DNA of 45,599 nt from a virus (taxonomy: Duplodnaviria > Caudoviricetes). The position numbers were made by a program, and so were the translations under genes. Below are positions 1 to 45,139 of the stretch, piece after piece. Within the stretch, counting starts at the first letter, position 1; each line of letters begins with the position of its first letter. The stretch covers positions 1 to 45,599 of IMG/VR virus record IMGVR_UViG_3300044788_000027. One strand, given 5' to 3'. The notes beneath the pieces are model-generated. The model saw only the letters and a list, made by a program, of their open reading frames with translations, searched no databases and had not been told where the DNA came from.

Positions 1-201
1 GATCCTCGGCGACCTTGAGGTCGGCACGGCGCTCGCGCGCCGGCACGGCGACGTTCCCGACGTCGGGACGGCGTGGTTCCCGCTCGAGCACGACAACGGC
101 ACGCTCGGCGAAGAGGCCGCGCTCGGCGCGCTCGGCCTGGTCGAGATCAAGCTGACCGACGCCGAAGAGGCGATCCTCGCGCAGCCCGTGCCCGTCACGG
201 C
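1..201. repeat. Terminal direct repeat, left copy (circular overlap)
   Basis: Matches 45399-45599 except T74 vs G45472. Confidence 0.95.
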
Positions 202-994
202 CGTGCTCATCAAACCGACCGGGCAGCCCTATCTCTCGCACCCGAGTTACACGCAGTGGTTCAACCGCGCGTTCGGCCGCCTGGGGTGGGCGATCGTCCC
301 GAAGGCGAAGCCCCGCATGGCCGACAAGACGATTAGCTGCCCCTACATCCTCTACATCCACGGCAAGCCCGCCGCGTTCGCGCTCGGTGAGCAGGAATAC
401 CACGAGAGCAACAAGGAGCAGACCTACGGCGACGCCTACGAGGCGACCGTCGCGAGCGCGCTGCGACGCTGCGCGAAACGCCTCGGCGTCGGGCTCGAGC
501 TCTGGGATCGCACCTGGCTGCAGACGTTCATCGATCAGCACTGCGTCAAGGTCTGGTGTGGCGACGACCCCAAACCGAAATGGCGGCGCCGGCAGGATCC
601 GCCGTTCTGGAACGAGAAGACGGCCGCGGGCCGAAAGGAGCAGAGCACTGTGCGACACGAAGCCAACGACGACGATCAGCGCCGCGAGCAGCGCCGGCCG
701 CCATCCGCCGGCCACGACGGCCGCGGCGACGAGCTCATCACACAAGCCCACGTAGACGCCGCCGGCGTGAAGAAACTCGGCCAGGTCGAGCGGCTCGGGA
801 TCATTCTGCGGAATAGCGGGCGCGACGTCATGCAGTTCAAGATGTGGCTGGTGCGCAACTACAACATCGACAGTCGGAAGCTGATCAAGCGCCGCGACTA
901 CGATGCCATCTGCGCGGCCATCGAGGCGCCGGGCGAGCTGCCGGAACGATCGGATCCGTTCCCCGCGGTGCGCGAGCCAGGGCAGGAGGGGTAA
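2..994 (+). CDS. Mgm101/Rad52(Sak)-family ssDNA annealing protein, 3' part (gene crosses the circular junction, start about 45235)
   Basis: EAILAQP..LIKPTGQPYLSHPSYTQWFNRAFGRLGW..GEQEY..ALRRCAKRLGVGLELWD matches the Mgm101p/Rad52 core as I recall it; frame stays open across the junction. Confidence 0.8.
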   Translation: MLGDLEVGTALARRHGDVPDVGTAWFPLEHDNGTLGEEAALGALGLVEIKLTDAEEAILAQPVPVTAVLIKPTGQPYLSHPSYTQWFNRAFGRLGWAIVPKAKPRMADKTISCPYILYIHGKPAAFALGEQEYHESNKEQTYGDAYEATVASALRRCAKRLGVGLELWDRTWLQTFIDQHCVKVWCGDDPKPKWRRRQDPPFWNEKTAAGRKEQSTVRHEANDDDQRREQRRPPSAGHDGRGDELITQAHVDAAGVKKLGQVERLGIILRNSGRDVMQFKMWLVRNYNIDSRKLIKRRDYDAICAAIEAPGELPERSDPFPAVREPGQEG

Positions 995-4107: not shown

Positions 4108-4140
4108 ATTGTTGACAACAATCCGGGCATCTGTCATGCT
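4108..4140 (+). promoter_or_regulatory. Sigma70 promoter with palindromic operator over -35
   Basis: ATTGTTG-A-CAACAAT (4108-4122) contains TTGACA; 17 bp to CATGCT, preceded by TGn; GGAGG SD follows. Confidence 0.65.
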
Positions 4141-4158
4141 CGCGCCGGAGGTGTGGAC

Positions 4159-5169
4159 ATGGCAAAAGCAACACGGGCGGCAGCGAACCGCCCCGATCAG
4201 CTCGCGGTGATTGACATCGCGCAGCAGCAGGGACTCGACGAGCAGGGTCTTGTGCGGGAGGTCGGCGCCAACGTCATCGCGTTCGTCGGCAGCCTGGCGC
4301 TCTTCTTCAAGACGGCGACGGCGCTCGAGGCGAAGGCCAAGGGCACGCTCGCGATCGCGCAGCAGCTCAAGGCGCAGCCGCCGAAGAACGGCGCCGACGA
4401 CGAAGTGCTGCAGCGCTTCATCATCCGCGCCCGCGAGGAATACAAGGGCGTCACGGCCCACTGGGAAATCACCAGCAAGATCTCGAAGTTCCACAAGACG
4501 TTGACCGCGGCCCGCGCGCGCGCCACCGACGCGCTCGAGGAAGCCGGCAAGATCGCGACTGAGTTGCATAACGACTACACGCGCGCCGAGCAGCGCCGTG
4601 TCGAAGCAGAGAACCAGCGCCGCGAGGATCAGGCCCGGAGCGACCAGCAGGCGATCCGCGATCGCGAGCTCGCCGAGGCCGAGGCCGCGGCCATTGCCGA
4701 AGAGGCGAAAAGCGAGAAGCTCTCGCTGCGTGAGGGGATGTTCCTCGAGAAGTATCTGGCGACCGGGAACGCGATCCTCGCCGCGCGCCACGCCGGCTAT
4801 CGAGACGCCGCCGCGCAGGCGCCGAAGCTGATCGCCTCGGCGAAGATCATCGACGCGATTGCCGGCAAGCGTGAGGCCGACGAGCTCCGCAAGCAGGCCG
4901 CGGCGCTCGCGACAAAGCCGCTCGACCCGGTGCACATCGAAGAGGTCAAGGCCGACGTCGGCAAGGCGGGCAGCGACCGCACGACCTACTCGGCGAAGGT
5001 CACCGACGCGGCGCTGTTCATCAAGGCCGTCATCGCGCAGACCCACGGGATCCCCGTGTCGTGCCTGGCGATCGACCAGACGCAGCTGAACATCTGTGCG
5101 CGGGACTTCCGCGAGCTGATCAACCGCTGGCCCGGCGTCGAGCTGGTGAAAAAGACGGGGGTGATCTGA
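4159..5169 (+). CDS. Coiled-coil phage protein with an inserted TerS-like HTH
   Basis: Long Ala/Glu/Arg helices; internal LSLREGMFLEKYLATGNAILAARHAGY. Confidence 0.7.
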   Translation: MAKATRAAANRPDQLAVIDIAQQQGLDEQGLVREVGANVIAFVGSLALFFKTATALEAKAKGTLAIAQQLKAQPPKNGADDEVLQRFIIRAREEYKGVTAHWEITSKISKFHKTLTAARARATDALEEAGKIATELHNDYTRAEQRRVEAENQRREDQARSDQQAIRDRELAEAEAAAIAEEAKSEKLSLREGMFLEKYLATGNAILAARHAGYRDAAAQAPKLIASAKIIDAIAGKREADELRKQAAALATKPLDPVHIEEVKADVGKAGSDRTTYSAKVTDAALFIKAVIAQTHGIPVSCLAIDQTQLNICARDFRELINRWPGVELVKKTGVI

Positions 5170-5504
5170 TGGACACCGAAACCCGCCTGCCGGAAGACGT
5201 CTACTCGAAGATGCTCGCGCGCGTCATCGACCACCCGGAGGCGACCACGCTGGCCGCCTCGACGATCGACTTGGTGACGCTGCTCGGCCACACGCAGACC
5301 TGGATCGTCAAGGTCGTGCGCATCGCCGGCCGCGACACCGCGTTTCTGCAGCGCATCGACGCTGAGGGCGGCATGCGCCTGGTGCTGCCGCCGGAAGTGA
5401 CCGCGGCGTATCGGCACCAGGCCGACCGCCTCGACGCTATCGGCCGCCGGCGCGCCGCGCGCAAGGCTGCCGCCACTCGTCGCGAAAAGAAAGGGGTGAA
5501 GTGA
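5169..5504 (+). CDS. Hypothetical protein
   Basis: TGATG coupling; phage-like codon use. Confidence 0.65.
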   Translation: MDTETRLPEDVYSKMLARVIDHPEATTLAASTIDLVTLLGHTQTWIVKVVRIAGRDTAFLQRIDAEGGMRLVLPPEVTAAYRHQADRLDAIGRRRAARKAAATRREKKGVK

Positions 5505-5806
5505 TGGAGCGCCGCACCTGGCCGAAGGATCTCGAGCAGGGCCCGACCTACAGCCCGAACGGCGGCATGCCGGCATCGAACCCGCCCGAGCTGCAGCTGG
5601 CGCCGTTCGCCATCGACTGTATCGATCGCCGGATCGCGCCGACACTCGAGCAGGTGATCACGCTGCCCGTGCTGGTGAACGGGCACGACTCTGGGATCTC
5701 GGTCTATGTGGCCGTGTCCGCGTTCGCGCCGCGCGTCAGCGACGGCTCGCTCAAACTGCTCGCCACAGTGATCGCCGACCTCGTGAACAATCCGGGGGTG
5801 CGCTGA
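5504..5806 (+). CDS. Hypothetical protein
   Basis: TGATG coupling at both ends. Confidence 0.55.
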   Translation: MERRTWPKDLEQGPTYSPNGGMPASNPPELQLAPFAIDCIDRRIAPTLEQVITLPVLVNGHDSGISVYVAVSAFAPRVSDGSLKLLATVIADLVNNPGVR

Positions 5807-5988
5807 TGTTCCACGAAAACGACGTTGTGAAGCGACTCGATAATGGCCGTCCGGTTCGCATCGTTGAGGTGCTGCCGAACGGCCTGCGAGTGTTCTACCG
5901 AACCGTCGATCTTCAGGACGGACACACAGCCATCTTCAGCCAGGAGCAGCTTCGCGCGCGCGTTGTGCTCGAGCAGGAAATGGCATGA
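5806..5988 (+). CDS. Small beta-barrel-like hypothetical protein
   Basis: Coupled start; GGGGG SD. Confidence 0.5.
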   Translation: MFHENDVVKRLDNGRPVRIVEVLPNGLRVFYRTVDLQDGHTAIFSQEQLRARVVLEQEMA

Positions 5989-6067
5989 CCGGCCGTGCCT
6001 GGCTCGCCGCCTACGTGGCCGTGCTCGCCGCCGGCGTGTTCCTCGCCGGCGTGCTCTGGGGATTCCG

Positions 6068-6268
6068 ATGATCTGCACGCACGCCGAGCTCTCCGACTCG
6101 ACCCACACCTCGAGCACGTGCTACGGCACGTTCTACATCTGCGCCGCCTGCGTGGCTCAGGGGCACATGCCGCCGATTGTCGAGTATCGGCGGCACCCGC
6201 TCCACGACACGAAGGGCTGCGAGTGCGAGCACGTCGATCACGCCAAGCCGATCGAGATTGTCGTATGA
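6068..6268 (+). CDS. Small Cys/His-rich protein
   Basis: ICAAC, CECEH; ATGA overlaps. Confidence 0.45.
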   Translation: MICTHAELSDSTHTSSTCYGTFYICAACVAQGHMPPIVEYRRHPLHDTKGCECEHVDHAKPIEIVV

Positions 6269-6537
6269 GCGCCCGCGTGATCGTCACCCTCAGCCAGCTG
6301 CACGACGTCGCGCGCCAGGTGCGCGAGCAGCGGGCCCACCTGACCGCCCTGCAGCGCGTCACTGCCCTATGCGGGTTGCAGGCCGCGGCGTTCGAGCTCG
6401 CGAGCCAGGTGCAGCTGCTCGAGCGCGACAACGCCGGCGAGGTGCTCGCCGACCTGTCGGCCTGGCGACGGGAGGCCGAGGTGCTGGTCGAAGTGGAGCG
6501 CGCCCTACTGCGCCGCGACCTCGAGGGGCGACGCTGA
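6265..6537 (+). CDS. Hypothetical helical protein
   Basis: Overlapping start and stop codons. Confidence 0.5.
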   Translation: MSARVIVTLSQLHDVARQVREQRAHLTALQRVTALCGLQAAAFELASQVQLLERDNAGEVLADLSAWRREAEVLVEVERALLRRDLEGRR

Positions 6538-6773
6538 TGCCCTGGCTGATGCTCACTCCGCGCGAGGTCGAGGACGTGTTCAGGGACAGCCCGAACCTAC
6601 AAGGCAATTCCCCGGCGCTCAGGGCCGTGCAGGAGCGGCTCAACCGCCTGACGGGCGAGGTCACCCTGTCAGACGAGCAGCTCGACGCCTGCAGGGCCGG
6701 CAGGACCAACTGGCGGGGCGGCCACGAACGCGCGATGAACGCCATCGTGCGCGCGGCCGACCGCATGGCCTGA
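6537..6773 (+). CDS. Hypothetical protein
   Basis: GAGGGG SD, TGATG coupling; ends just before the origin. Confidence 0.55.
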   Translation: MPWLMLTPREVEDVFRDSPNLQGNSPALRAVQERLNRLTGEVTLSDEQLDACRAGRTNWRGGHERAMNAIVRAADRMA

Positions 6774-6774
6774 C

Positions 6775-6995
6775 TTTTCAACAGGTTTTCCACAGGTTAT
6801 CCGCAACCTGTGGAAAACTCCCGACCCGCTCTAAGGGGATTCCCTTACCCGCCGGCGATTTTCACAAACCATCAACAGCTGCCTGTGCACGGTAACCTGC
6901 TGAGCCAATTGAGTTCTGAGCGGTTTTCCACATTTGCACAGGCCCTTCTTCTTCTTCTTATCCATACAAACCTATAAGAATCTAGGAATTAAGAG
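6775..6995 (+). other. oriC-like DnaA-dependent replication origin
   Basis: DnaA-box-like 9-mers TTTTCAACA 6775, TTTTCCACA 6786, TTATCCGCA 6797, inverted TGTGGAAAA 6809; TTTTCCACA 6924 / ATTTGCACA 6932, then GGCC, (CTT)5 trios at 6945-6959, then an AT-rich tract; only long AT-rich intergenic region. Confidence 0.8.
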
Positions 6996-7006
6996 CGCCG
7001 AACCCG

Positions 7007-7036
7007 TTGACAACAACCGGGTTTTTGACAACAATC
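7007..7036 (+). promoter_or_regulatory. Tandem TTGACAACAA operator/promoter motif
   Basis: TTGACAACAACC at 7007 and TTGACAACAATC at 7025; same motif as 4112, 34573, 44862. Confidence 0.55.
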
Positions 7037-7049
7037 GGCCGTTCCTGCG

Positions 7050-7583
7050 ATGGCATCCAACGCCGGCCGCGGCGCCTACTACAAAGGCCGCACGAAGAAG
7101 TGGCTGATCGCCCAAGGTTGGCAGGTGGCCGACCTCGAGGTGACGCGCTGGATCCATCCGCCCGGCCGCAGCGCTCTGCCAATCAAACGCGACCAATTGG
7201 GATCCGACTTGCTCGCCGTGAGCGCCCACCGCATCGCGTTCGTGCAGGTGAAGAGCGGCGCGCAGGCCGCCGGCGACACGCAGTTTCCTGACGCGCAGCG
7301 CGAGTTCCACCGCTTCACCTTCCCGCCGTTCGTGCGCCTCTTGATCGCCGCCTGGACGCCGGGCGCGCGGTTTCCTCGCCTGATCGTCGTCAACCCGAAG
7401 GAGATCACTGATGCCCAGGAAGCGACAACCGAAACCGGCCGGCCACGAACGACAGCAGCCCACACGCCAGGGCAAGCAGGCCGCAAAAGCCGTGCGCGAG
7501 AAGGTGCGGCAACCGCAGCAGCGCGCGCTGATCGAAGACGCCCGTATCGGGGCGCTCGACAAGATCGGCTACCGCTACGCTGA
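7050..7583 (+). CDS. PD-(D/E)XK nuclease, Hjc-type Holliday-junction-resolvase-like
   Basis: GAYYK..KKWLIAQGWQV..GSDLLAV..IAFVQVKS. Confidence 0.65.
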   Translation: MASNAGRGAYYKGRTKKWLIAQGWQVADLEVTRWIHPPGRSALPIKRDQLGSDLLAVSAHRIAFVQVKSGAQAAGDTQFPDAQREFHRFTFPPFVRLLIAAWTPGARFPRLIVVNPKEITDAQEATTETGRPRTTAAHTPGQAGRKSRAREGAATAAARADRRRPYRGARQDRLPLR

Positions 7584-7857
7584 GATCCGTGACGCGCGCA
7601 TCGAGCTCAATCGGCAAGAGAAAAAACTGAAGGCGCGGGCGATCGTCCTGATGCACCAGCACGGCAAGACCACCTACAAACACGAAGCGATCGAGATCGA
7701 GCTCGAGCCGGGCGAAGAGGACATCAAGGTCAAGGTGAAATCAGGCACCGAGATCAAGTCACACGGCGAAGCGAATCCCGACGACGGCACCGAGCTCGAG
7801 CAGGTGGAGAACGTCGATCTGCGCGAGCTGGAAGATCCGGCGCATGGAACGCGGTAA
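7411..7857 (+). CDS. Hypothetical protein (basic N-terminus, acidic C-terminus)
   Basis: AAGGAG SD; overlaps the upstream gene tail by about 170 bp. Confidence 0.65.
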   Translation: MPRKRQPKPAGHERQQPTRQGKQAAKAVREKVRQPQQRALIEDARIGALDKIGYRYAEIRDARIELNRQEKKLKARAIVLMHQHGKTTYKHEAIEIELEPGEEDIKVKVKSGTEIKSHGEANPDDGTELEQVENVDLRELEDPAHGTR

Positions 7858-8884
7858 ACACCGGCCGCGCGCCGGCCTCACGCGCGTCGAAGCGGTTCGG
7901 CCGATCGTGATCGGGCACTACAAGCTGACCGCGACCGGCATGGATGTGGACGGCCGGCCCGACTTTGCCGAGCATGCTTCAGTCGGCGAGTTCATCCGCC
8001 GCGCGCAATTCGCGAGCGGATTTTGGCTCGCCGATTGGCTGCGCTACGGCGACAGTCGGCACGAATGGCAGGAGCGGCTCGAGCAGGCCATCGACGCCAC
8101 CGGCTACAGCGAGAAGACGCTCAAGAACGTGCGCGCGGTCGGTGCGATCGAGAAATCCCGACGTCGGGAAGGCATCGAGTTCGGCCTGCATGATGCCGTC
8201 GCCTCGCTCGAGCCGGAGGAACAAAGCGACTGGCTCGAACGCGCCGCGGAAAACGGTTGGGGGGTGCGCGAGCTGCGCCTCTCGATTCGCGCGGCGCGCC
8301 GGCGCCGCGTGCTCGAGGGCCAGGCCACGCTCACCGGCATGTATCGCGTGATCTACGCGGATCCGCCCTGGCTCTACGGCGACAGCGGGCCCACCGCGGA
8401 CGGCAGCCTGGGCAAATCGGAACGGCACTATCCGGGCATGACGATCGACGAGCTCTGCCGGCTGCCCGTCGCCGCGCACTGCACGCCGCACGCCGTGTTG
8501 TTCCTCTGGACGACGGCGCCCTTTCTGATGATGAACCCCGGCCCGCGCGAGGTGCTCGAGGCGTGGGGGTTTGACTACAAGACGGGCCTCGTGTGGGATA
8601 AGGTGTTCGGCAACTTCGGGCACTACGTGCACGTGGCCCATGAACACCTGCTGATCTGCACGCGCGGATCGTGCCTGCCTGACGAGCCGATCCCGTCGCC
8701 CTCGAGCGTCTACCACGAACGGCGCTCGAGCATCCACAGCGAGAAACCCGCCGGCGTGCGGAAACTAATCGAGCAGCTCTACACGACCGGGCCCTATCTC
8801 GAGCTCTTCGGACGCGAACCTGTGCCCGGCTGGTCCGTGTTCGGCAACGACGCCCGACTCTGGGCGGAAGAGGCCGCATCGTGA
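7844..8884 (+). CDS. MT-A70-family N6-adenine methyltransferase with N-terminal LmbU-like DNA-binding domain
   Basis: VIYADPPW, LFLWTT, WGFDYKT, HEHLLI, HSEKP, YLELFGR..GW..FGN; N-terminal FWLADWLRYG..TGYSEKTLKN..EQSDWL. Confidence 0.85.
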   Translation: MERGKHRPRAGLTRVEAVRPIVIGHYKLTATGMDVDGRPDFAEHASVGEFIRRAQFASGFWLADWLRYGDSRHEWQERLEQAIDATGYSEKTLKNVRAVGAIEKSRRREGIEFGLHDAVASLEPEEQSDWLERAAENGWGVRELRLSIRAARRRRVLEGQATLTGMYRVIYADPPWLYGDSGPTADGSLGKSERHYPGMTIDELCRLPVAAHCTPHAVLFLWTTAPFLMMNPGPREVLEAWGFDYKTGLVWDKVFGNFGHYVHVAHEHLLICTRGSCLPDEPIPSPSSVYHERRSSIHSEKPAGVRKLIEQLYTTGPYLELFGREPVPGWSVFGNDARLWAEEAAS

Positions 8885-9763: not shown

Positions 9764-10735
9764 ATGGCACAAGGCATCAAGCTCGTTCGGCCGTCGTCTG
9801 ATTCCGAGAAACGCACGCGCACCACCGTGGACACGATCGAGCTTACGCCGGCGCTGGTGAAAACCTGGCAGATCCCGCCGTTTCAGCGGGCGTTCCGCCT
9901 GAATCGAAAAGTGCAGGAGGTCGTGCAGCAGATCATCACGGACGGCGGCGTGCTGCCCGGCGTGATCACGCTCGGCGTGTTTGAAGGCAGTGTCTACATC
10001 GTGGACGGCCAGCACCGCGTCAAGGCCTTTGAGATGAGTCAGCTGCCGCTCGGCTACGCGGACGTGCGCCAGCACTATTTCACAACGCTCGCCGAGATGT
10101 CCGACGAGTTCGTGCAACTGAACAGCAGCCTGGTGCGCCTGCGGCCCGATGACATTCTGCGCGGCCTCGAGGCATCGACGCCCGTGCTGCAGCGCCTTCG
10201 GAAACGGTGCCCGTTCATCGGTTACGAGCACATTCGGCGTAGCGGTTCCGGCGCCGTGATGTCTATGTCCACGTTCATACGGGCCTGGGTGGGCGGGCGG
10301 AACGAGTCGCCGGCCATCACCGTGCCCGCGACGACGGCCGTGCAGTTGCTCGACGAGGAAGAAGCGAACGGCGCGATCGACTTCGCGACCCTGTGCTTTG
10401 GGGCCTGGCAGCGGGACAACGAATACGCGAAACTCTGGTCAGGCATCAACATGATGCTCTGTGCCTGGCTCTACCGGCGGCTGGTGATGGGCCAGGGCGT
10501 TTCAAGCACCTCGAGATGGACCCGCTACACGAAAGAGGATTTTCGGCGCGCACTGATGGCTCTCTCGAGTGAGGCGATGTATCTCGAGTTTCTTGTCGGG
10601 CGGAACGTCAGCGGGCGCGATCGCTCGCCGGCCTACAGCCGCATCAAGACCATCATCGGCCGGCGTTATCAGCAGGACCACAATAAGAAACCGCTGCACC
10701 CGCAACCCTCGTGGTCGCACTCGGGAGCGCGGTAA
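9764..10735 (+). CDS. ParB/Srx-like (DGQHR) domain protein
   Basis: PFQR..YIVDGQHR..EFVQLNS. Confidence 0.7.
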   Translation: MAQGIKLVRPSSDSEKRTRTTVDTIELTPALVKTWQIPPFQRAFRLNRKVQEVVQQIITDGGVLPGVITLGVFEGSVYIVDGQHRVKAFEMSQLPLGYADVRQHYFTTLAEMSDEFVQLNSSLVRLRPDDILRGLEASTPVLQRLRKRCPFIGYEHIRRSGSGAVMSMSTFIRAWVGGRNESPAITVPATTAVQLLDEEEANGAIDFATLCFGAWQRDNEYAKLWSGINMMLCAWLYRRLVMGQGVSSTSRWTRYTKEDFRRALMALSSEAMYLEFLVGRNVSGRDRSPAYSRIKTIIGRRYQQDHNKKPLHPQPSWSHSGAR

Positions 10736-30328: not shown

Positions 30329-32061
30329 TGCCTACCGTGCAAACCTACGGCGCGCGCAAGGTCAGCACCGCGCGATTGCCCGGCGCGCGATTGACCGCGG
30401 CCGAGACGCCGGAGTCACAGGGCGCCGGCCTGGCCTCGGCTCAAGGCCGCACCGCCGGCGTCATCAACCAGATCGGCCGCCAGGTGGGCGCGCTCGGCGA
30501 GAGCCTCTACGGCCAGGCCCAAGAGGAACAGCGGCACGCCGACCAGGTGGCGCTGATGGAAGCCGAAAACAAACTGTCATCCTGGGAGAATCAGCGCCTC
30601 TACGACCCGGAGAACGGCGCGCTCGGCGTCAAGGGCAAGGCCGCGATGGGCCTGCCGGAAACCGTCAACGGCGACTACCAGAAGTTCGCCGGCGAGATCG
30701 AGCAGGGCCTCACAACCGATCGCCAGCGCGAAGCGTTCGCCGTCGTCGCCGGCCGGCGCGGGCAGAGCATCGATCTGACGCTGCAGCGGCACGTCTTCGG
30801 CGAGATCAAGCAATACGAAAGCGACGAGCTCACGAAGCTCATCGACAACAAGAAGCAGGAAGCGATTCAGAACGCGGCCGACCCGCGGCGCGTGGGCGTC
30901 GCGCTGAACGATGCGATCGCCGCGCTCGAGAGCTCGGCCCCGCGTTTGGGCACTGGCCCCGAAGAGCTCGCCGCACAGAAGCGCCTCATCACCAGCAACA
31001 CGCACGTCGGCGTGCTCGAGCAGCTGCTCGCGACCGGCCAGGGCAAGCAGGCGAAAGTTTATTTCGACGAAACGAAGGGCCTGATCTCCGGCGACCAGCT
31101 GCCGCGCATCGAGCGCGCGCTCGCGGAAGGCGACACCCGCGGCGAGTCGCAGAAGCAGGCCGATGCCATCCTGGCCGCCGGTGGCACGTTGTCCGAGCAG
31201 CTCGCGAAGGCGAAAACGATCGATGACCCGGCCGTGCGCGATATGACCGAGCAGCGCCTCGAGCACCAGAACAGCATCAACGAACGGATCCAGCGCGAGC
31301 AGAGCGAGGCGGCGCTCAAGGCGTCTTACGATCGCATCGACCAAACCGGCGACCCCTACAGCATCCCGCCGAGCACGTGGGCGAGCCTCAGCGGCGGCGA
31401 ACGGTCCTCGCTCCTGGCGTATGCCGAGCACCGCGCGAAGGGCACCGAGGTCGAAACCGATCTGCCGACCTACTACAACCTGATGCAGACGGCTTCGAAA
31501 GAGCCGGGGATCTTCGCGACCGCGAACCTGCTCAAATATCGCGACAAACTCGGCCGCACCGAGTTCAAGCAGCTCACCGAGCTGCAGCTCGCGATGCGGC
31601 GCGGCGACAAACCCGTCGCCGAGCAGGCCCTCGACGAGTTCCGCTCGAGCAACCAGATCGTCAGCGATACGCTCAACCAATACGGCATCGATCCGACACC
31701 GAAGGAAGGCAGCAAGCCAGCTGCGGCCATCGCGCAGCTGCGCCGCATGCTCGACTTGCGCGTCGCTGCCGCGCAGCCGATCGATCCCAAGACCGGCAAG
31801 CGGCCGAAGATCACCAACGTCGAGGTGCAGCGGGCGCTCGACGATCTGCTCGGCCAGAGCGCCAACGTCAAAGGTTCCTGGTGGAACATCTGGCCGGGCG
31901 GCGCGCCGTTCTACGACACCAGTAAAAAGCTGATCGACCTGACGATCGAAGATGTGCCCGCCGACGCGAAAGCGGACATCACGCAGAAGCTCAAACGCCG
32001 CGGCCTGCCGGCGACCGACCCGGCCGTGCTCAACGTGTATATCGAGTCACAGGTCAAGTGA
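30328..32061 (+). CDS. Internal virion/ejection protein (gp15-like)
   Basis: MPTVQTY start, helical, lies between the other two ejection genes. Confidence 0.75.
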   Translation: MPTVQTYGARKVSTARLPGARLTAAETPESQGAGLASAQGRTAGVINQIGRQVGALGESLYGQAQEEQRHADQVALMEAENKLSSWENQRLYDPENGALGVKGKAAMGLPETVNGDYQKFAGEIEQGLTTDRQREAFAVVAGRRGQSIDLTLQRHVFGEIKQYESDELTKLIDNKKQEAIQNAADPRRVGVALNDAIAALESSAPRLGTGPEELAAQKRLITSNTHVGVLEQLLATGQGKQAKVYFDETKGLISGDQLPRIERALAEGDTRGESQKQADAILAAGGTLSEQLAKAKTIDDPAVRDMTEQRLEHQNSINERIQREQSEAALKASYDRIDQTGDPYSIPPSTWASLSGGERSSLLAYAEHRAKGTEVETDLPTYYNLMQTASKEPGIFATANLLKYRDKLGRTEFKQLTELQLAMRRGDKPVAEQALDEFRSSNQIVSDTLNQYGIDPTPKEGSKPAAAIAQLRRMLDLRVAAAQPIDPKTGKRPKITNVEVQRALDDLLGQSANVKGSWWNIWPGGAPFYDTSKKLIDLTIEDVPADAKADITQKLKRRGLPATDPAVLNVYIESQVK

Positions 32062-35000
32062 GCGATTTCGATCAGACCATCGACGCGATGCAGGAACCCG
32101 CGCCCGGCACGCAGCCGGCGCCGCCGGATCCGTTCGATCAGGCCATCGACCGCATCAACGCCACCGGCCGCACGCAGCTCGAGACAGCGTTCCGCACAAC
32201 GGCCGACGTGGCCCCCGATCGCGCGGCCGAAGCGCGGCGCCTCGCGCTCAAGTTTGGCGCGCCGGCCCAAGTCATCGAGCGCAACCTCGAGGACTATCAG
32301 AAGCGCGCCGCCGGCGAGAAGCCGATCGACCAAATCACGCACGACAGCCCCGCGCTCGCGACGTGGGCGAAGGACACCAACAACGCGGCGATCGCGCAGG
32401 ACGACCTCGAGCCACTGGGAAATCTCGAGTGGATCCTCAAAGCCGTGCCGCGCGCGTTCCAGCAACAGGTTGATCAGGTCGCCTACAGCCAGCTCCGCTA
32501 CAAAAGTCTGTTCAGCACGCTGACGCAGGCCGAACACGACCTGATGGAGAGCACGAAGCGCGCGAGCACGCTCGGCGGCGAGCTCGGCGCCGGCAATAGC
32601 TGGTTCCGCAAAGCGATTACCGGCGCCTCGCAGCTACTCGCGCAAGGCGTCGAGCCGATCAAATACACCATCGCGGGACTTGGCGAGGGCGCCGTCGTCG
32701 GCGCCGTCGTGGCAGCCGTGGCCCCGCCGGCGGCCCCGATCACCGCGTTCGGCGGCGCGATGGCCGGCGCCGCGATGGGCGGCACCTACGGCGTCATCCG
32801 CACGACCGCGATGCAGGAGACGGTGCAGGCTTACGACGAGCTGCTCGAGATGCGCGACGAGCATGGCGTCGGCGTGGATCCGCAGATCGCGAAGATCGCC
32901 GCGCTCGGCGTCGGCGGCCTCAACGGCCTGATCGAGCTCGCCGGCGTCGAGAAGTTCCTCGAAACCATCCCCGGCCTCGACAAGCTGCGCGGCAAGCTCT
33001 CACGCAGCGCGATGAAGGAGGCACTGCGCTCGCCGACGATCCGCAGCGCGTTCCGCCAACTCGCGACCGAATACGGCGGCACGCTGACCGCCGAGACGGC
33101 GACCGAAGTGGCGCAGCGCGCCGTCGCGATCGCGGGCGAAGAGCTCTCGAAGAGCGCCAGCGCCACGAAGGGCGTCACGACGTTGACCGGCACCGCGGCG
33201 ATGCGCACGCCGAGCCAGGTGGGCACCGAGCTCATTGACGAAGCCGTGGGCGCCGTGCAGTCGTTCGCGCTCGGCATCGCGCCGGGCCCCGTCGCCACGT
33301 TCGTGCACGACGCGGCACGGGCCAAGCGCGCGAGCATCAATCAATCATTCTTCAAGGCGCTCAACGAGGGCGTGGCGCAGTCGAAGACGTTCGAGCGGCT
33401 GCCCGAGGCGGCGCAGCGCTTCGTGGAAGAGGCGACGAAGGACGGGCCCGTGGGCACCGTCTACGCGCCCATCGACAGCTGGCGGCAATACTGGCAATCA
33501 CAGAACCTCGACCCGGCGGCGATGGCCGAGCAGGTGACCGGCAACAAGACGGCTTACGACCAGGCGGTCGCCAGTGGCGGCGACCTACCGATCCCGACCG
33601 CCCGCTACGCGGTCACCCTGGCCGGCACCGAACATAACGGCTACTTTGCCGACGAGCTCCGGCTCGGCCCCGACGAGATGAACGGCCGGGAGCAGAAGCA
33701 GTTCGTCGAGCAGCTACAGGCCGCGCGCGAGCTCGTGACCCAGGCCGCCACCGCAGAGCCCAACGCGGCGCGCCAGGGGGTGCTCGAGCGCCTCACCGCG
33801 GCCGGCGTGCCCGCCGAGACGGCCCAACGCTACGCCGACATCTACGCCTCGGCCGGCGGCGAGTCGGGCATCTTCGCCGGCGGCGCCGTCACGCGCGCCG
33901 GCATGGATCCGGCCGAGTTCTACCGGCAATACGGCCTCACCATCAGCCGGGAGGGGCAGGCAATAAGTGTTCCACGTGGAACATCTGAGCAGACCCGTGC
34001 AGCCACCGCGGCAGCCACAGAGAAGGCGCCGGGCCCGCCACAGGACGACATCACGGCCGGCGTGCCCTCTGCTGAGGGCCAGGTGCCCGCCACGACGGTC
34101 GAACCCGCCCTGCCGGCCGGTGCAGGCCCGGCCGCGTTCGCGGGCCCTGAGCGGCGCCAGGCCATCGGCATCGGCCCTGCCGGCGTCGAGCGGCGCGCCA
34201 CGGCCGATCAGCCGATCGATACGACCGACGTGCACGCGGCCGTCGCGCAGATGGTCGCCGAGAATCCGAACATCAAGGCCGAGGCGGCAGCCCTGGGCGA
34301 GCGTGCGCGCGCGGCGAACCGGGAGAGCCGGGCCCGGATTGCCACGGCAAACCGGCGCGCAGACCCCCAGACGGAGCACTTCGCCGAGCAGTGGGCGGCA
34401 ACCGGCCAGGTGCGCACGGTCAGCCCCGCCGGCGTCGAGCACCTCGTCACCGAGAGCCAGGCCGAGCCGGGTAAGTTTGACGTGCAAACCCTCGAGGGCG
34501 GCGCGGTCACCGCAACGCAGACCGTTGAGAACCTGCCGGCCGCGGCCAAGCTGCTCGCGGACCATAAGGTTCTTGACAACAATCAGGCGACTGATCAGAC
34601 TGGAGCACCTCATGCCGGCCCCGAATCCCAACCGCGCGCGGCAGCTCGTAAGCGCGGGCTCGCCGCCGGGGACAGCATTGCGCCAAGCTCTCCGCGAGTC
34701 GTCGAAACCACAAGCGCCGCCGGCAACCGGAGCGTCCGGCAAGAATCGCCCGCCCAACGGGCTGAGCGCCGCGCGAAGCACTTCGCCGACGTCTTCAAGG
34801 TCGTCTACGCCAACGCGCGTCAACTAGACCCGACCGTCAACCGCAAAGCCCTGTTCGCCGAGTTCGAGCAGCGCCTCGCGCTCTACGACGAGCTGCAATC
34901 GCTCTATCGCGAGAGCGGCCACGACCCGAAGGATCTGCTGCGGGCGATCGCACAGCGCGGCGGCCTGGCCGAAAAGGCCGGCGGCTACACCGGCGAGATC

Positions 35001-38000
35001 GCCGACCTAAAGAGCGGCAACAAGTTCGGATCACTGCAAGGGGTCGGCGGCGTCTTCCGCAAGCGCGAGACGGACACGCGGGGCGTGCCAATCAAAGGGC
35101 TCGACGCGGACCTGATGACGACCTCGCTGCAGCAAGAGCAGCGGTTCAATTGGATCACCGACCCGAACGTGCTGCTCGACGCGCTCGACGAGATCAGCCG
35201 GAACCCGCCGAAAGAAGACACGTTCCCCGGCACGGCCGAGCTCTACGCCGACATGAACATCGACATGATGACAACGTGGTGGCGCGACAGCTGGCGCGAT
35301 CAGAATCTCACCGACGAGACGACGATCGATGACGGCAGCAGCGACATTCTCGAGCCGGCCGGCGCCGTCGATACCTCGTTCAACATCGACGAGTTCAGTC
35401 AATCGCTGTTCGACGAGCTCGAGCCGCCAACCGCGACGGAGACGCTCGCCGACACGCTCGACACCGGCGAGCAGCAGCCGCGGCTTCCCGACGTCGGGAC
35501 GGTGCGCGATCAGAACGTGCCGACGCCACAGCTCGAGGCGCCGTTCTCGCTCACCTCGGAGGTCGCCAAACCAGCGAAGGGCAAACAGACCACGCTGTTC
35601 CAGAGCGTCTATCACGGCACGCCCTACCGCTTCGAGAAGTTCGACCTGCAGGCGATCGGTAGCGGCGAGGGCGCGCAGGCCTACGGATGGGGGCTCTACT
35701 TTGCGGGCTCGCGCGAGGTCGCCGAGTATTACCGGGACAAGCTGACCGAGCAGCTCGGCGCGCCGGCGAATCAATTCACTGCGCTCGACACGTTCCAGAA
35801 CGACATTCTGCCCGACCAGGTGCGCCTCGACATCGCGAAGGGGCAGCAGGCGGGCGGCGCGTTCGAGGATTCGCGCGCGGCGATCGCCGCCTACAGGGCC
35901 GACTACACGGCGCGCCTCGAGCGGTCGGCGCTCTCGATTCAAGAGTTCAACGACCAGGCGGCCGGCGTGCATGCGCACACGCGCCAAGACATCGCGCTCA
36001 ACGAGGCGCGCGTGCGCGACATGGCGCGCAACCAGCAGATCCTCAGCGTGCTCGAGCAGCTCGAGGCGAGCGGCGACTTCACGACGGCCGCCGAAACGCG
36101 CGGCACGCTCTACACCGTGGAGATCCCCGAAGACGAGCACATGCTCGACCACGACAAGCTGGCAAGCCAGCAGCCGCCGGCTGTGCAGGCCGCGCTGCGC
36201 GAGCTCGGCCTGACCTGGCTGCCTACCCACATCCCGACGAACCAGGCCGAGGCGCTCAACGTGTTCGAGGCCGACTACGTGCGCGATATCTGGCTCGAGG
36301 ACGTCGGGATCCGCGAATCGCTGAAGGAAGGCCTGCACTACGCGCGGAACGACAACATGCCCGCGTTCCGCAGCTGGTTCCAACTGCACGCCGGGCTGTT
36401 CATGCCAGAAGGCAACACCGATCAGAACGGCCGACAGATCTACGACCAGCTGCAAAGCGAGTGGATGCAGACGAACCGCCACAGCTCGCTGAAGGAATCC
36501 GCGAAGGCCGCGAGTCTGCAGCTGCTCAGTAAGGGCGTGCTCGGCATTCGCTATCTCGATGGCGTCTCGAGGCGCAAAGGCGAGGGCAACGCGAACTATG
36601 TGCTGTTCGACGATCGGCACGCGCAGATCACCGAGTTCGGGCAGCCATTGCCCGCCGCACTGGACACGGCGACCGTCAACGCCTGGGCGCAGGACGTGCA
36701 GGAGCGCGCCGGCGCCGACCTGGTGCACTTCGACGTCCGACTACTCGCGAGCACCGGCGACCTCGAGCTCGAGACGATCGCCGTCAACCGCGGCGCGCAA
36801 CGGGCCGGCCTGGGCAGCCGCGTCATGCAGGAGCTCACGCGGTTCGCTGACCAGCACAACAAGCGCATCGTCGTGACGCCGGCGCCGCGCGGATTCGCGC
36901 CGGGCGGCGGGGCTGTGACCTCGAGCCGCTCGCGCCTGGTGAACTTCTACAAGCGATTCGGGTTTGTCGAGAACAAGGGCCGGCAGAAGGATTTCACCAC
37001 GCAGGCCGGCATGTATCGCGAGCCGACCGTGATCCCTGGTCGGGAGATGGCGCAACCGCTGTTCCACGGATCGCCGCATGACTTCGAGAAGTTCTCCCTC
37101 GAGCACGTCGGCACCGGGGAGGGCGCCGCATCTTACGGCTACGGGCTTTACTTCGCCGAGAACCCCGTCGTCGCCGCGGGCTATCACGATCGCCTGAGTG
37201 GCGAGCCGCAAGTGCGGCGCATGCAGATCGGTTCGCTGGTCGTCGGCCAGATGAACGATTTCGACTACTCGCGCAACGCGCACGTCAGCGACTACGAGAA
37301 CATCCGCGCGAGCTTGGCCGAGGATCTGCTGATCCATCCGCTCGATCTGCTCGCCGCCGGCGAGGCAGGTTTCCGCGAGCACGTGCTGAAGACGCTCGAC
37401 CAGAAGATCGCCGACTACGCGACCGAGTGGCCCGAGGGCGCGATCGCCGGTAAGGCGCTCCACGCGGCGCTCGCGAAACCGGGCGCGCTCAGTATCAAGT
37501 TCGATCCCAAGAGTGGCGGCGTCTACCAGGTTGACATTGCCGACAGGCACATCGAGAAAATGCTCGACTGGGACGCGCCTATTCAAGAGCAGCCGGAAGC
37601 CGTCAAAGATCTGGTGCGCAAGGCCCTGCAGGAGCAGGGCTATCTCGCTAAGGGCGAGAACGGCCCGCGTCAGCTCGTCAGCGCGTTCAAGGCGTTCACC
37701 CTTGAGCGTGGCGGCATGGCACAGGGGCCAACAGGCGAATTTGCTTACGACACGATCGTGCAGGCTGAAGTGCGCAAGCAGGGCGCCGCACTCCTGGCCG
37801 AGCAGCAGGCGCTCAACGTGAAATACCCCGGCCCTGGCATTGCGGCAATTCGATTCGGCGACACGCCAGCCGCGCAGATGGACCTGAAGCGGTTTCTCAC
37901 GATCGATGCCGAGCTCGGCAAGATTCGGGACACCGCGCCGAAGGCCGCAAGCGCGCGGCTCGCCGCGGCCGGGGTGCCTGGCTTGCGCTACCTCGACGCT

Positions 38001-41000
38001 GGATCGAGAGATACCGGCCAGGGGACGCGTAACGTCGTCGTGTTCGATGCGTCGATCGTCGAGCTCACGCACAAGGACGGCACGCCAATCACGGCCGCCG
38101 AACGGAAGGAATATCTGCAGGGGACGCCCGGCGGTGGCCCTGAAGGCCAGGCGACACCGCGCCGCGGCGCCATTCGGTTCGGCCCGAGCCGGCAGTTCGA
38201 CATCGCGCTACTCGAGCGCGCCGACCTCTCGACCTTCCTGCATGAGAGCGGGCATTTCTTCCTCGAGGTGTTCGGCGATCTGGTGGACAAGGTGACCGCG
38301 ATCGAGCCGGCCGCGCGCACCGCCTCGCAGACGCAGCTGCTCACCGACTGGGATACGCTGCTCGGCTCGTTTCGCGATCCGCTCACTGGCACGACCGGGA
38401 TCAGCTCGCGCGCCGCCATCACCGAAGCACAGCACGAACAATTCGCGCGCACGTTCGAGGCCTACCTCATGGAAGGGAAGGCGCCGAGCCTCGAGCTGCA
38501 GAGCACGTTCTCGCGATTCCGCGCCTGGCTGATCGGCATCTATCGATCGCTGAAGAACCTGGGCGTCGAGATGACCCCCGAGGTGCGCGGCGTGATGGAC
38601 CGCCTGCTGGCGAGCGACGCGGCGATCGCGCAGGCGGAAGCACAGCGTGGTATCGGCGCAATGTTCGTGACCGCCGAGATGGCCGGCATGAGCGCCGACG
38701 AGTTCGCGCTCTACAAGCAGACCGTCGCCGATGCCTCGAGGACCGCCCGCGAGCAGCTCGATCGCAAGCTGCTCAGTGAGGTGCAGCGCGAGCAGACAAA
38801 ACAGTGGAAGGCGATGCGCGAAGAGATCCGCGTCGAGGTCGAGCGCGCCGTGCATGGCGAGCCGGTCTACCGGGCGCTCAGCGCGATCCGCTCCGGCGAG
38901 AATCCAGACGGCACGCCGCTCGAGGAAGGCAAAGAGCTGACGCCGCTCACGCTCTCGAGTCAGGCGATCCGTAACCGCTACGGCGCCGCGCACCTCAAGC
39001 GCCTGCCTCGAGGGCTGACCACGACCGAGGGCGGGCTCGACCCCGACCTGGTGGCCGATCTGTTCGGGTTTGCCAGCGGCGACGCGATGCTCACCGCGCT
39101 CGAGAACGCGCCGCCGGCGAAGCGCGTCATCGACACGACGACGCAGCGCAAGATGCTCGAGGAACACGGCAGCATCCTGCTCGACGGCACGCTCATGGAT
39201 CACGCGCAGGCGAGCGTCTCGAACGAGGACCGCGAGATGGTCATCCGCAAGGAGATGCGCGCCCTGGGCCAGCTGCGCCGGCGCGTGGCGCCGTTTGTCG
39301 AGCAGGGCAAGCGCGCCGAGCGCGCCGCCGGCGCCGCGACACAGGCCGCCAGCGAGAAAGAACGCGCGTATGAACGGCGATGGTTCGAGGCCGAGGCGAA
39401 GCTGCGCGTCGCGATCGCGACAGGCGAGCAGCAAGTCATCATCGATCAGCTCACCGACGAAGTGAACAACCTACGGCAGAAAGCCCGCGGCGGCGCCGCC
39501 ATCATCCGCGCCGGCATCCCGCCGGCCAACGTGCTGCGCGACGCGGCGCGCGCGGCCATCGGCGACACGCTGATCCGCGACGTCAAGCCCGAACGGTTTT
39601 GGTCGGCGTCCCGCCGCGCCGGTCAGGACGCGATCGAGAAGGCCGCACGCCAAGACTTCAACGGGGCGATCGTTGCGAAGCAGCAGGAGCTCATCCACCT
39701 GCAGATGTATCGCGAGGCGCAGGCGGCGCTCGACGACATCGACGCCCGCGTGCAAGCCGCCAAGGATCTCGCCAAACCCTCGAGGCGCGCGGCCATCGGC
39801 CAGGCGGGCAGCGGCTACCTAGACCAGATCGACGGCCTGCTCGACCGCTATCAATTCGCCCACGTGAGCAACAAGGTGCTCGAGCGCCGGGCCGAGCTCC
39901 GCAACTGGGCCGAGGCCCTCGAGGCGCAGGGGATGCCCGTGGACTTGCCCGACGAGCTGCTCAACGAGGCGCGCCGGAAGAACTACCAGGAGATGACCTA
40001 CGCCGAGCTGGTCGGCGTCACGGACGGCATCAAGCAGATCGTCCACCTGGCGCAGCTGCAGGGCCGGCTGCTCAAGGCTGTCGATACGCGCGACTTCAAC
40101 GAGCTCCGCGACAACGTGATCGCGTCGATTCGGGCGAACCACAGCGCGCGGGCGCTGCCGCTCGAGTTCCGCGAGGCCGACGTGCGCACGCGCTCCGTGT
40201 CTAATTGGTTCGCGAGTCATCGGAAGATCAGCGACATCGCGCAGGCCTTTGACGGTTATGTAGACGGGGGCATCTTCTGGTCCGCGTTCATGCGGCCGAT
40301 CAACGAGGCCGGCGACGCCGAGCAGCTGCGCAAGGGCCAGGCCGGCGCCGCCTACCAGAAGATTCTCGAGCAGGCCTACCCCGGCCGAGAGCTCGCGACG
40401 CTGCGCACGATGCAGCACATTCCGGCCATCAACAGCAGCCTGTCGAAAGAGGCGCGACTGGCCGTCGCGCTCAACTGGGGCAACCAGGAAGGGCGCGATC
40501 GCCTGACGACCGACGCCACCCGCAAGTGGTCGCACGACCAAGTGGTCGCCATCCTCGACACGCTCGACGCGCGCGACTGGCAGTTCGTGCAACAGACCTG
40601 GGACTACCTCAACACGTTCTGGCCGGAGATCGCCGCGAAGATGGAACGGGTCACCGGCCTGCCGCCCGTCAAGGTTGAGGCGCTGCCCGTGCAGACGAAA
40701 TTCGGCGAGCTCAAGGGCGGCTATTACCCGCTGGCCTACGACAGCCGCCTGAACCCCCGCCAGGCGCAGCACGAAGAGGCGAACGCCGCGAAGCTGCAGA
40801 CCGCCGCGGCCTACATCCGCACGACGACGAAGCGCGGCCACGAGAAAACGCGGCAGGCGTTCGTGAAAAGCAGCGTGCGTCTCGAGATCGGCGTCGCGTT
40901 CGCGCATCTGGATCAGGTGATTCACGACTTGACGCACCACGAGACGCTCATCGACACGACGCGGCTGCTCCGTAATCCGCTGGTGACGAAGGCGATCCTC

Positions 41001-42176
41001 GAGACACACGGCGACATCGTGTTTCAACAGCTGACGCGCGGCTTGCAGGACATCGCGATGGGCTCGACGCCGAAGGCCAACACGGTGCTCGACAAGAGCC
41101 TCAACTACGTGCGCACCGGCACACAGATCGCCGGCCTGGGCTGGAACCTCTGGACCGGCCTGCAGCAGCCGCTCGGTCTGTTCAATGGCGCCTCACGTGT
41201 CGGCGCGCCCTGGGTGCTCCGCGGCCTGACGCGCTGGCTGCGCGACGCGGCCACGATGGAGCACACGACGAAGTGGATCGCCGAGGCGTCGCCGATGATG
41301 CGCGCGCGCACGCAGACGGCGACGCAGGATCTCGTTGATTTGCGCGCCGCGTTCCGACAACCGGGCGGCTGGTTCGACACGTTGGTGCGCACGGTCACCG
41401 CCGACCACGTGACGCAGCAGACGATCGTGGATTCGTTCCTGTGGCATATCGGTGTCGCGCAGCGCGTCGCCGACGTGCCGACCTGGCTCGGCCAGTATGA
41501 GAAATCGCGCGCCGCCGGCGAGAGCGAAGAACGCAGCGCTCGCATCGCGGACCAGGCCGTGCTCGACAGCCAGGGCGGCGGCCAGATCAAGGATCTCGCG
41601 CAGGTGCAACGCGGCGGGCCCGTCGCGCGCGTGTTCCTCACGTTCTACAGCTACGGCAATACGGTGTTCAACGCGACCGCGCGCGCGGCCGGCAAAACGA
41701 ACTTCCGATCGCCGACGCAGGTGGCGACGTTCCTCGGTCACCTGACGCTGCTCTACATCGCGCCGGCGTTCGCCACGACCATGCTCTCGCGGATGACCGG
41801 GCGCCGCGGCGGCGACGATGATACGCCCGACAAGTTCGTCGGCGACTGGCTGCAGGAGACGATCGTGACCGCGATGAACACGATGATTCTGTTGCGCGAG
41901 CTCGGCGGCCTGGCGCAAGACGGCGCCCGCGGCTACGCCGGCCCGGCCGGCACGCGGATCGGTTCGCTGCTTTATAACGCCTGGCGCCAGGTTGAGCAGG
42001 GCGAGCTCGACGAGTCACTGTTTAAAGCGATCAACGCGGCGGCCGGCATCTTGTTTCACTATCCGGCCACGCAGGTGCAACGCACGATCGACGGATGGGT
42101 GGCGCTCGAGGAAGGGCGCACGACGAACCCGGCCGTGCTGCTCACAGGCCCGCCGCCGAAGAATCAGGCCAAGTAA
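32058..42176 (+). CDS. Giant internal virion protein (gp16 position), polyvalent: two ART-like domains, GNAT-like domain, HExxH metallopeptidase-like domain
   Basis: YHGT/FHGS..GEGA..YG.GLYFA twice; [16 protein letters not shown]; [19 protein letters not shown]. Confidence 0.85.
33968..33983. promoter_or_regulatory. Chromosomal-type parS site
   Basis: TGTTCCACGTGGAACA, a perfect 16-bp palindrome matching the widely conserved parS consensus. Confidence 0.8.
34573..34614 (+). promoter_or_regulatory. Intragenic promoter/operator copy
   Basis: TTGACAACAATC; TTGACA-17 bp-CAGACT, then GGAG and an out-of-frame ATG at 34612. Confidence 0.4.
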
Positions 42177-44857: not shown

Positions 44858-44901
44858 ATTGTTGACAATAACGGGGACGGCTCGTAAGCTGTCCCTGTTA
44901 T
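44858..44901 (+). promoter_or_regulatory. Sigma70 promoter/operator with overlapping hairpin
   Basis: ATTGTTGACAATAAC; TTGACA(44862)-17 bp-TAAGCT(44885); 15-bp stem at 44868-44901. Confidence 0.65.
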
Positions 44902-45139
44902 GACCAAACCCAAAGACAACGCCCGCCCCGGCCGCACGTCGATTTTTCGCGACAAGGCCGGCGGCGACCGCGTGCAGGGCAACATCACCGCCGCGGGATC
45001 CGTGCGGTTCGAGCAGGCGCGCCGGCGCCTCGCGAAGCTGGCGGGCTGCGAATACGAGGACGTGAGCGACGCCGACACGATCGAGTTTCTCGCGCGCGGC
45101 GAGGGCGAGACGATCAAGGCGCTACAACAGCCGGCGTAA
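44900..45139 (+). CDS. Small putative ribbon-helix-helix DNA-binding protein (repressor candidate)
   Basis: Beta-like RVQGNIT followed by two helices (..SDADTIEFLAR); own promoter and downstream hairpin. Confidence 0.5.
   Translation: MTKPKDNARPGRTSIFRDKAGGDRVQGNITAAGSVRFEQARRRLAKLAGCEYEDVSDADTIEFLARGEGETIKALQQPA

Follow-up and report, generated by a model that had tools for sequence, protein, structure and literature searches.

A candidate miniature oriC in the replication slot of a podophage-type virus genome

Our analyses of sequence suggest that positions 6775-6995 of a tailed-phage genome are likely to be its replication origin, a miniature oriC that would be opened by host DnaA alone. 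Most relatives carry replication genes of their own where this phage has the origin-like module, and it is probably host DnaA that starts replication here. The window, by which we mean the whole stretch of DNA analyzed (45,599 bases), is an entire virus record (G000) of 99% completeness. Its first ~200 bases recur as its last ~200, and this terminal repeat marks the genome, at about 45.4 kb, as circularly complete. Every gene accepted as real lies on the plus strand; the late genes are of podophage type (terminase, portal PF12236, capsid PF20911, Bbp16, Bbp19, and internal virion proteins), and among the early ones are those for a Rad52/Mgm101-type annealing protein and an exonuclease, besides an MT-A70 methylase and a ParB-like protein. 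The last of these (9764-10735, ParB-like/GmrSD_N) was not found in the other phages with the module. Elsewhere, the window encodes a polyvalent protein of 3372 aa (32058-42176) with LPD22, ART-PolyVal, and GNAT domains and, at 44900-45139, has a 79-aa gene that falls into no known family; among the related records searched, 20 conserve this gene, and its product by eye looks like a ribbon-helix-helix regulator. The features of the module and its surroundings are as follows.

2..994, plus strand: Rad52/Mgm101-type single-strand annealing protein; the frame runs on across the terminal overlap
1713-2300: exonuclease, forming a recombination module with the annealing protein of 2..994
6537..6773, plus strand: gene for a 78-aa protein of unknown function, at the left edge of the slot for replication genes
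6775..6805, plus strand: three DnaA-box-like 9-mers at an 11-bp pitch (TTTTCAACA, TTTTCCACA, TTATCCGCA; starts 6775, 6786, 6797)
6809..6817, minus strand: inverted DnaA box TTTTCCACA
6858..6891, no strand assigned: degenerate middle boxes (TTTTCACAA, CATCAACAG, TGTGCAC), weak and drawn from an alignment
6924-6932 and 6932-6940, plus strand: tandem DnaA boxes TTTTCCACA and ATTTGCACA, overlapping by one base
6941..6944, plus strand: GGCC spacer, a G+C-rich gap
6945..6962, minus strand: six DnaA-trios, five 3'-GAA-5' and one 3'-TAG-5'
6945..6995, no strand assigned: A+T-rich unwinding element, predicted from composition and stability
7007..7035, plus strand: sigma70-type promoter (TTGACA, 17 nt, AACAAT), directed away from the origin
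7050..7400, plus strand: right-edge gene of the slot, in the position that a RuvC-type resolvase holds in relatives

Layout of the origin-like module

The oriC-like module spans ~220 bp inside a 276-bp intergenic gap and runs, in order, through three boxes, an inverted box, an overlapping box pair, GGCC, six DnaA-trios, and A+T-rich DNA. The first box, at 6775, starts one base past the stop codon of the upstream gene, and the inverted box at 6809 makes up, together with 6785-6798, a perfect inverted repeat of 14 bp. By likeness to the distal boxes of Bacillus subtilis incC, the array at 6775..6805 may be a distal DnaA-loading array. The middle boxes align with TGCACA and TTTTCAACA boxes of relatives. 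A sequence-only reading had described overlapping boxes, GGCC, five CTT repeats, and AT-rich DNA at 6924-6995 as a basal unwinding system (BUS). The sequence reads as claimed, with CTT five times on the top strand at 6945-6959 and an ATC at 6960-6962 that supplies a sixth trio with a central T; that reading caught the core of the feature but missed its upstream half, with the boxes at 6775, 6786, 6797, and 6809. The A+T content of 6945-6995 is 69%, against a genome G+C content of ~66%, and a further box-like 9-mer, TTATCCATA, lies at 6958 inside this element.

The layout follows the rules given for the bacterial BUS in the available text of PMC8287927. These rules allow a DnaA box up to two mismatches to TTATCCACA, and the box at 6924-6932 has one; they allow the second tandem box up to four, with the better box upstream, and the box at 6932-6940 has three mismatches to TTATCCACA and two to TTTTCCACA. 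As in the rules, the better box of the pair is the one more distant from the trios. The spacer to the first trio is set at 0-16 bases with a peak at 10-13, followed by at least three 3'-NAN-5' trios; the module has 12 bases from the better box to the first trio, and then six trios. In the accessible text of PMC10721633, 3'-GA-5' is the preferred trio dinucleotide and the B. subtilis structure engages six trios; five of the six trios in the window begin with 3'-GA-5'. An unstable A+T-rich element lies beside the trios, starting at 6945, and distal upstream boxes are found at 6775, 6786, and 6797 on the plus strand and 6809 on the minus strand. The lowest-stability 50-bp window of the genome begins at 6945, i.e. 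at the first trio, where the nearest-neighbor energy is -1.14 compared with a genome mean of -1.63. The cumulative GC skew, on the other hand, makes no turn at the module and falls across the genome, with extremes at 2544 and 44992; because all genes are on one strand, this test is weak. No iterons were found in the origin besides the boxes, the other direct repeat being a 14-nt promoter repeat, and Rfam gave no match in the window and four loci.

The promoter at 7007..7035 starts 12 bp past the A+T tract, a proximity that would suit a role of DnaA in transcriptional control, with DnaA regulating this promoter and coupling phage expression to the growth state of the host. In three relatives (G214, G233, and G001), however, a gene intervenes between the module and this promoter, TTGACAA-type motifs are present across the clade without boxes, and regulation does not require trios, so that we regard such a role as very unlikely to account for the module. 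Within the window, the promoter-like TTGACAA motif recurs at 4112, 7007, and 44862 and is doubled, with 18-bp spacing, at 7007-7038.

The layout of the module is far outside chance. The genome holds five sites with at most one mismatch to TTATCCACA, all within 6786-6966, and five boxes in 200 bp occurred in none of 200 dinucleotide-preserving shuffles of the genome (maximum two). A box followed by five trios arose in one of the 200 genome shuffles and a box with three CT-N trios in none; when the 276-bp gap itself was shuffled 5000 times, five boxes never appeared and a box plus five trios appeared twice. A short core pattern alone is not diagnostic and arises by chance in large collections: of 39 matches to a 19-letter core pattern in IMG/VR, three pass a profile of bacterial oriC (described below) and 36 fail. 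This behavior of short cores is one of two points that would favor an assembly chimera, captured inert host DNA, or mere coincidence as the source of the module, the other being that sequencing run X4 has no cover over 6510-7115, the module included. In run X3, a 599-base contig spans 6712-7310 with zero differences and reaches both flanking genes, and because it bridges both sides the module is not chimeric, which disposes of the host insert that the sequence-only reading had allowed for. Run X2 carries 5500-8500 in a single contig without differences, although this run may be the source of the record, and the RNA-library run X5 covers 6796-7091 without differences, which speaks for presence only. 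Together with the conservation of the module in the same slot of four diverged relatives and with the shuffles, which rarely or never reproduce it, the X3 contig effectively refutes an artifact, and we give such an origin of the module almost no weight.

Replication genes and the replication slot within the clade

Family scans of chosen ORFs of the window (58 with Pfam, 57 with PHROG, and 28 with NCBIfam, from 255 listed at 60 aa or longer) gave no initiator, helicase, loader, primase, polymerase, integrase, or repressor. When DnaB_C, HTH_36, phrog_2447, and IstB were sought in all six frames, with a related phage serving as positive in each case, the window, G208, G233, and G214 likewise gave nothing, and an integrase search was negative in all five phages with the module. 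The clade's own initiator and loader types, used as queries, had no match in the window. The 78-aa gene at the left edge of the slot is present in module-type and loader/helicase-type relatives alike; it has no family in the ESM Atlas, and as a single-sequence locus query it returned one weak, unrelated match. The right-edge gene at 7050..7400 is without a family match of its own and is, from its position, a putative nuclease or resolvase.

Relatives were gathered via the methylase, the flanking 78-aa gene, and the terminase; most of 145 MT-A70 loci had only that gene in common and were dropped as non-syntenic before any counts. Forty records entered the genome search, of which 25, the window included, are at least 90% complete, and these 25 were compared over their full sequences, minus the last 1.4 kb of G235. 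Many relatives share a gene order of annealing protein, exonuclease, p4153, slot, resolvase, methylase, and terminase. The p4153 gene (4153-5169 in the window, 338 aa) has an internal stretch resembling the helix-turn-helix (HTH) of the small terminase and occurs in 19 of the 25 near-complete records; a homologue search with its alignment gave 17 proteins, without taxonomy.

The module and phage replication genes are mutually exclusive within the clade. Three of the 25 near-complete records (the window, G208, and G233) have at least three boxes in 250 bp, and no replication gene was detected in them, whereas the other 22 have replication genes and lack the box cluster (Fisher p 0.0004, a value that ignores kinship). 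In 13 of these 22 the replication genes are a small gene and a DnaB helicase and in three the small gene alone; an initiator of the DUF1376 or phrog_2447 type is encoded by four, a primase-helicase by one, and an O-like HTH initiator by the remaining record, G226. In those relatives that share the gene order, the replication genes occupy the very slot that holds the module in the window. Two partial records, G214 and G001, have the module in the same slot, and the part covered is free of replication genes, so that the module, whose conservation in related contigs had been put forward as a check, is kept in four diverged relatives (G208, G233, G214, and G001). There are six in-frame trios in the window and 4, 4, 3, and 2 in the four relatives, and the published minimum of three is thus reached by four of the five modules. 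The exception, G208, is the closest relative (terminase 80% identical) and keeps the tandem boxes and the pyrimidine tract with only two in-frame trios; as the corresponding gaps of candidate hosts are also degenerate, G208 weakens strict trio conservation but does not refute it. In a FastTree phylogeny of 38 terminase sequences, from which G235 was left out for want of a terminase match, module-type phages stand in three places among the others, an arrangement that suggests more than one exchange of the slot content. The proposal of the sequence-only reading that host DnaA itself melts the phage origin is supported in silico by this conservation and mutual exclusion, and we consider it a likely one.

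The same comparison bears on two other accounts of the boxes. The cluster might serve as a decoy that titrates host DnaA and blocks chromosome initiation while the phage replicates via R-loops or recombination only; plasmids with B. subtilis incC do inhibit chromosomal initiation, according to the accessible text of PMC6669920, a similar three-box array lies in intergenic DNA of cyanomyophages, and the window encodes annealing, exonuclease, and putative resolvase genes. For titration, however, boxes suffice, and a spacer, trios, and an unwinding element in the correct polarity would be superfluous; a decoy would equally serve the 22 relatives with replication genes, none of which has the cluster; and the module sits in the relatives' replication slot. 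A decoy thus seems improbable to us. We are similarly doubtful of a true initiator in the form of a small unannotated phage protein that DnaA merely assists, as in iteron plasmids and P1-type replicons. Many early ORFs of the window are without any family, which makes a new kind of phage initiator possible, and in G226 the O-like HTH initiator gene has boxes in its 3' part. Against such a protein stand the lack of iterons besides the boxes, the failure of the clade's initiator and loader types to give a match, and the finding that no gene of the window is common to all module-type phages yet absent from the rest; the gene adjoining the module, the 78-aa gene, has no homologue found in the closest relative, G208. 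An origin opened by host DnaA alone remains the reading that we favor.

The slot holds further elements elsewhere in the clade. A conserved non-coding element of ~250 nt precedes the small gene and DnaB in many relatives (L253:2340-2660, L261:3330-3647, L262:3470-3795, L111:4770-5084, and L123:4750-5064) and stands alone in L118 (2200-2500), where the slot, in the 13.5 kb covered of a 45.8-kb contig, holds this different non-coding element and neither the box cluster nor a loader/DnaB. Its stems covary, with two-sided changes in 19 of 69 predicted pairs; it has 12 matches in 34 records and no Rfam match in four loci scanned. As a possible RNA-primed origin, it would give the slot a third kind of content. 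In G226, the O-like HTH_36 initiator gene (L369:458-1003, minus strand) holds two or three DnaA boxes, and a G-rich 12-mer occurs twice inside it; this arrangement may stand midway between origins driven by an initiator and those that use DnaA only. The small gene before DnaB belongs to an unnamed family of ~160 aa (L013:2113-2622 and 17 homologues, alignment A8) with a C-terminal C-x-H-x-P-x-C motif and Phg_2220_C as its nearest Atlas family. The best match of its predicted fold (pLDDT 90.6) is the SPP1 helicase loader G39P (Z 6.0, rmsd 2.7, 65 residues), a match tied with unrelated proteins, which makes a G39P-like loader a lead only. The loader-helicase cassette G39P/G40P of SPP1 is the closest model of what the module replaces, and the window has neither gene.

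Comparison with bacterial and phage origins

The system most like the module is the BUS of B. subtilis incC, which, as described in the available text of PMC6669920, PMC8287927, and PMC10721633, shares with it the tandem boxes, the G+C gap, the trios, the A+T element, and the distal boxes. The boxes of the window differ in being TTTTCCACA, and the trios in being 3'-GAA-5' rather than mostly 3'-GAT-5'. On sequence grounds, the module resembles oriC in every test except GC skew, but it is not a chromosomal oriC: it is flanked by phage genes, in a virus record of 99% completeness, with no adjoining dnaA or dnaN. With the iteron replicons of P1, F, and RK2 and the O origins of lambda, it has in common an extrachromosomal origin, DnaA boxes, and an A+T-rich unwinding element; these replicons, however, need a replicon-encoded Rep on iterons, whereas the window has no recognized Rep or iteron and does have trios. 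In the accessible text of PMC10797057, DnaA is an assistant to Rep at plasmid origins, and its binding to the single-stranded plasmid unwinding element is not shown. DoriC 10 lists trios for bacterial chromosomes, in the text available from PMC6323995. The sequence-only reading knew of no DnaA-trios in tailed phages, a view that has to be given up, since the available text on phage G (PMC12484599) names DnaA boxes and a DnaA trio in an origin predicted by Ori-Finder. DnaA boxes are also described for an Ori-Finder origin of phage PseuGes_254, which encodes its own primase and polymerase (PMC11512268, accessible text). The origins of phage G and PseuGes_254, as these sources present them, are software output, and comparative support is on the side of the window. 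A literature search, which left subscription journals mostly uncovered and excluded supplements, turned up no description or test of a phage origin at which DnaA acts alone; the swap with replication genes within a clade is an addition of the present analysis.

None of 50,697 cultured-phage records covers 80% of the 276-bp gap, and the best matches to it are 35-42 bp of the distal array, in cyanomyophages. Many Synechococcus phage records have a three-box TTTTCCACA array like window 6781-6820, for example in intergenic DNA of OR003938.1 (80120-80161; L429:1501-1542). A strict tandem-box-trio pattern was found in eight IMG/VR contigs (L001-L008), three of them near-identical, with near-perfect tandem boxes, a G/C gap, and a CTA-trio core. 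Further boxes lie near most of these cores; L001, L002, and L008 each contain at least a dozen, and the core of L004 is at an HTH_36 gene. A Pfam scan of six of these loci gave dnaA in none, phage-type genes (integrase, HTH_36, and holin/endolysin) in three, and no matches in three.

The oriC profile was built solely from the post-dnaA gaps of 33 bacterial genomes, with no phage DNA; named Acidobacteriota records led to four of them, and the other 29 belong to the class of G003 (Vicinamibacteria, Acidobacteriota). Run against 34 phage records and loci, it placed the five module-type phages at ranks 1-5, each matched at the module, with E values of 2.5e-8 for the window and then 4.4e-5, 1.1e-4, 0.0026, and 0.073, the best other record reaching 0.48. 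Ten dnaA loci obtained via other named records were too few and varied to serve as a profile control. In the 33 bacterial loci, TTTTCCACA outnumbers TTATCCACA by 60 to 4, and 17 of the 33 gaps have at least three trios under the same scoring. The dnaA-dnaN gaps of this class and phylum resemble the module in their length (208-293 bp), in a first box right after the upstream stop codon, in their preference for TTTTCCACA over TTATCCACA, and in C/T-rich trios; that of G611, of the same phylum, has the window's first box, a 12-base spacer ending in GGCC, and five trios. The exact tandem pattern occurs in none of 201 bacterial genomes, so that the comparison with host origins, which the sequence-only reading had proposed, turned up no fresh copy of a sampled origin, and the phage module would be a diverged or convergent copy.

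These likenesses suggest as host an Acidobacteriota-like bacterium using TTTTCCACA boxes, although such boxes occur in other groups too. Neither spacers nor prophages gave a convincing host match in 401 genomes of the candidate phylum, the sole strong match there being terminase DNA in G003. A terminase scan of named genomes pointed to mixed phyla, the best two being Xanthobacteraceae and a Solibacteraceae MAG contig. In L011 and L170, of which one is a Solibacteraceae MAG contig, the clade's methylase and terminase genes are adjacent in bacterial-looking DNA, a pair that gives a weak hint of the host.

Proposed mechanism and implications for phage replication

We propose a sequence of events modeled on the chromosomal system. 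After injection, the phage genome would circularize, and host DnaA-ATP would load on the distal 11-bp array and then be handed to the tandem pair at 6924-6940; a like delivery by distal boxes has been proposed in B. subtilis incC (PMC6669920, available text). The DnaA filament would grow onto the bottom-strand trios, capturing their G-A bases and opening 6945-6995, upon which the host loader and DnaB would be recruited for theta replication by the host polymerase. The annealing protein, the exonuclease, and the putative resolvase would finally amplify and concatemerize the DNA for packaging. Firing by DnaA is normally limited per cell cycle, and since DnaA is rationed in this manner, burst amplification would need such a recombination step; the presence of the three genes suggests recombination-driven amplification. 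A plasmid-like carrier state of the phage is also possible.

To our knowledge, replication origins of double-stranded DNA phages depend on an initiator, helicase, or primase of the phage itself or else on an RNA primer. We lean toward the existence of a class of tailed phages without an initiator, loader, or helicase of their own, each using host DnaA alone at a ~220-bp mimic of oriC that is tuned to the box dialect of the host and that, as a freely exchangeable unit, has been swapped repeatedly within the present clade against loader-DnaB, O-like initiator, and primase-helicase cassettes. If true, firing with host DnaA alone would add a phage replication strategy, could account for some complete phage genomes that lack replication genes, and would tie phage growth to the DnaA-ATP level of the host. 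The box dialect may then provide a host-prediction signal for uncultured phages, and the modules may be of use as compact natural origins for tests of the BUS rules and for vector building in Acidobacteriota-like hosts. From an evolutionary point of view, the swap within a single clade makes what would otherwise be a resemblance of motifs a testable natural experiment.
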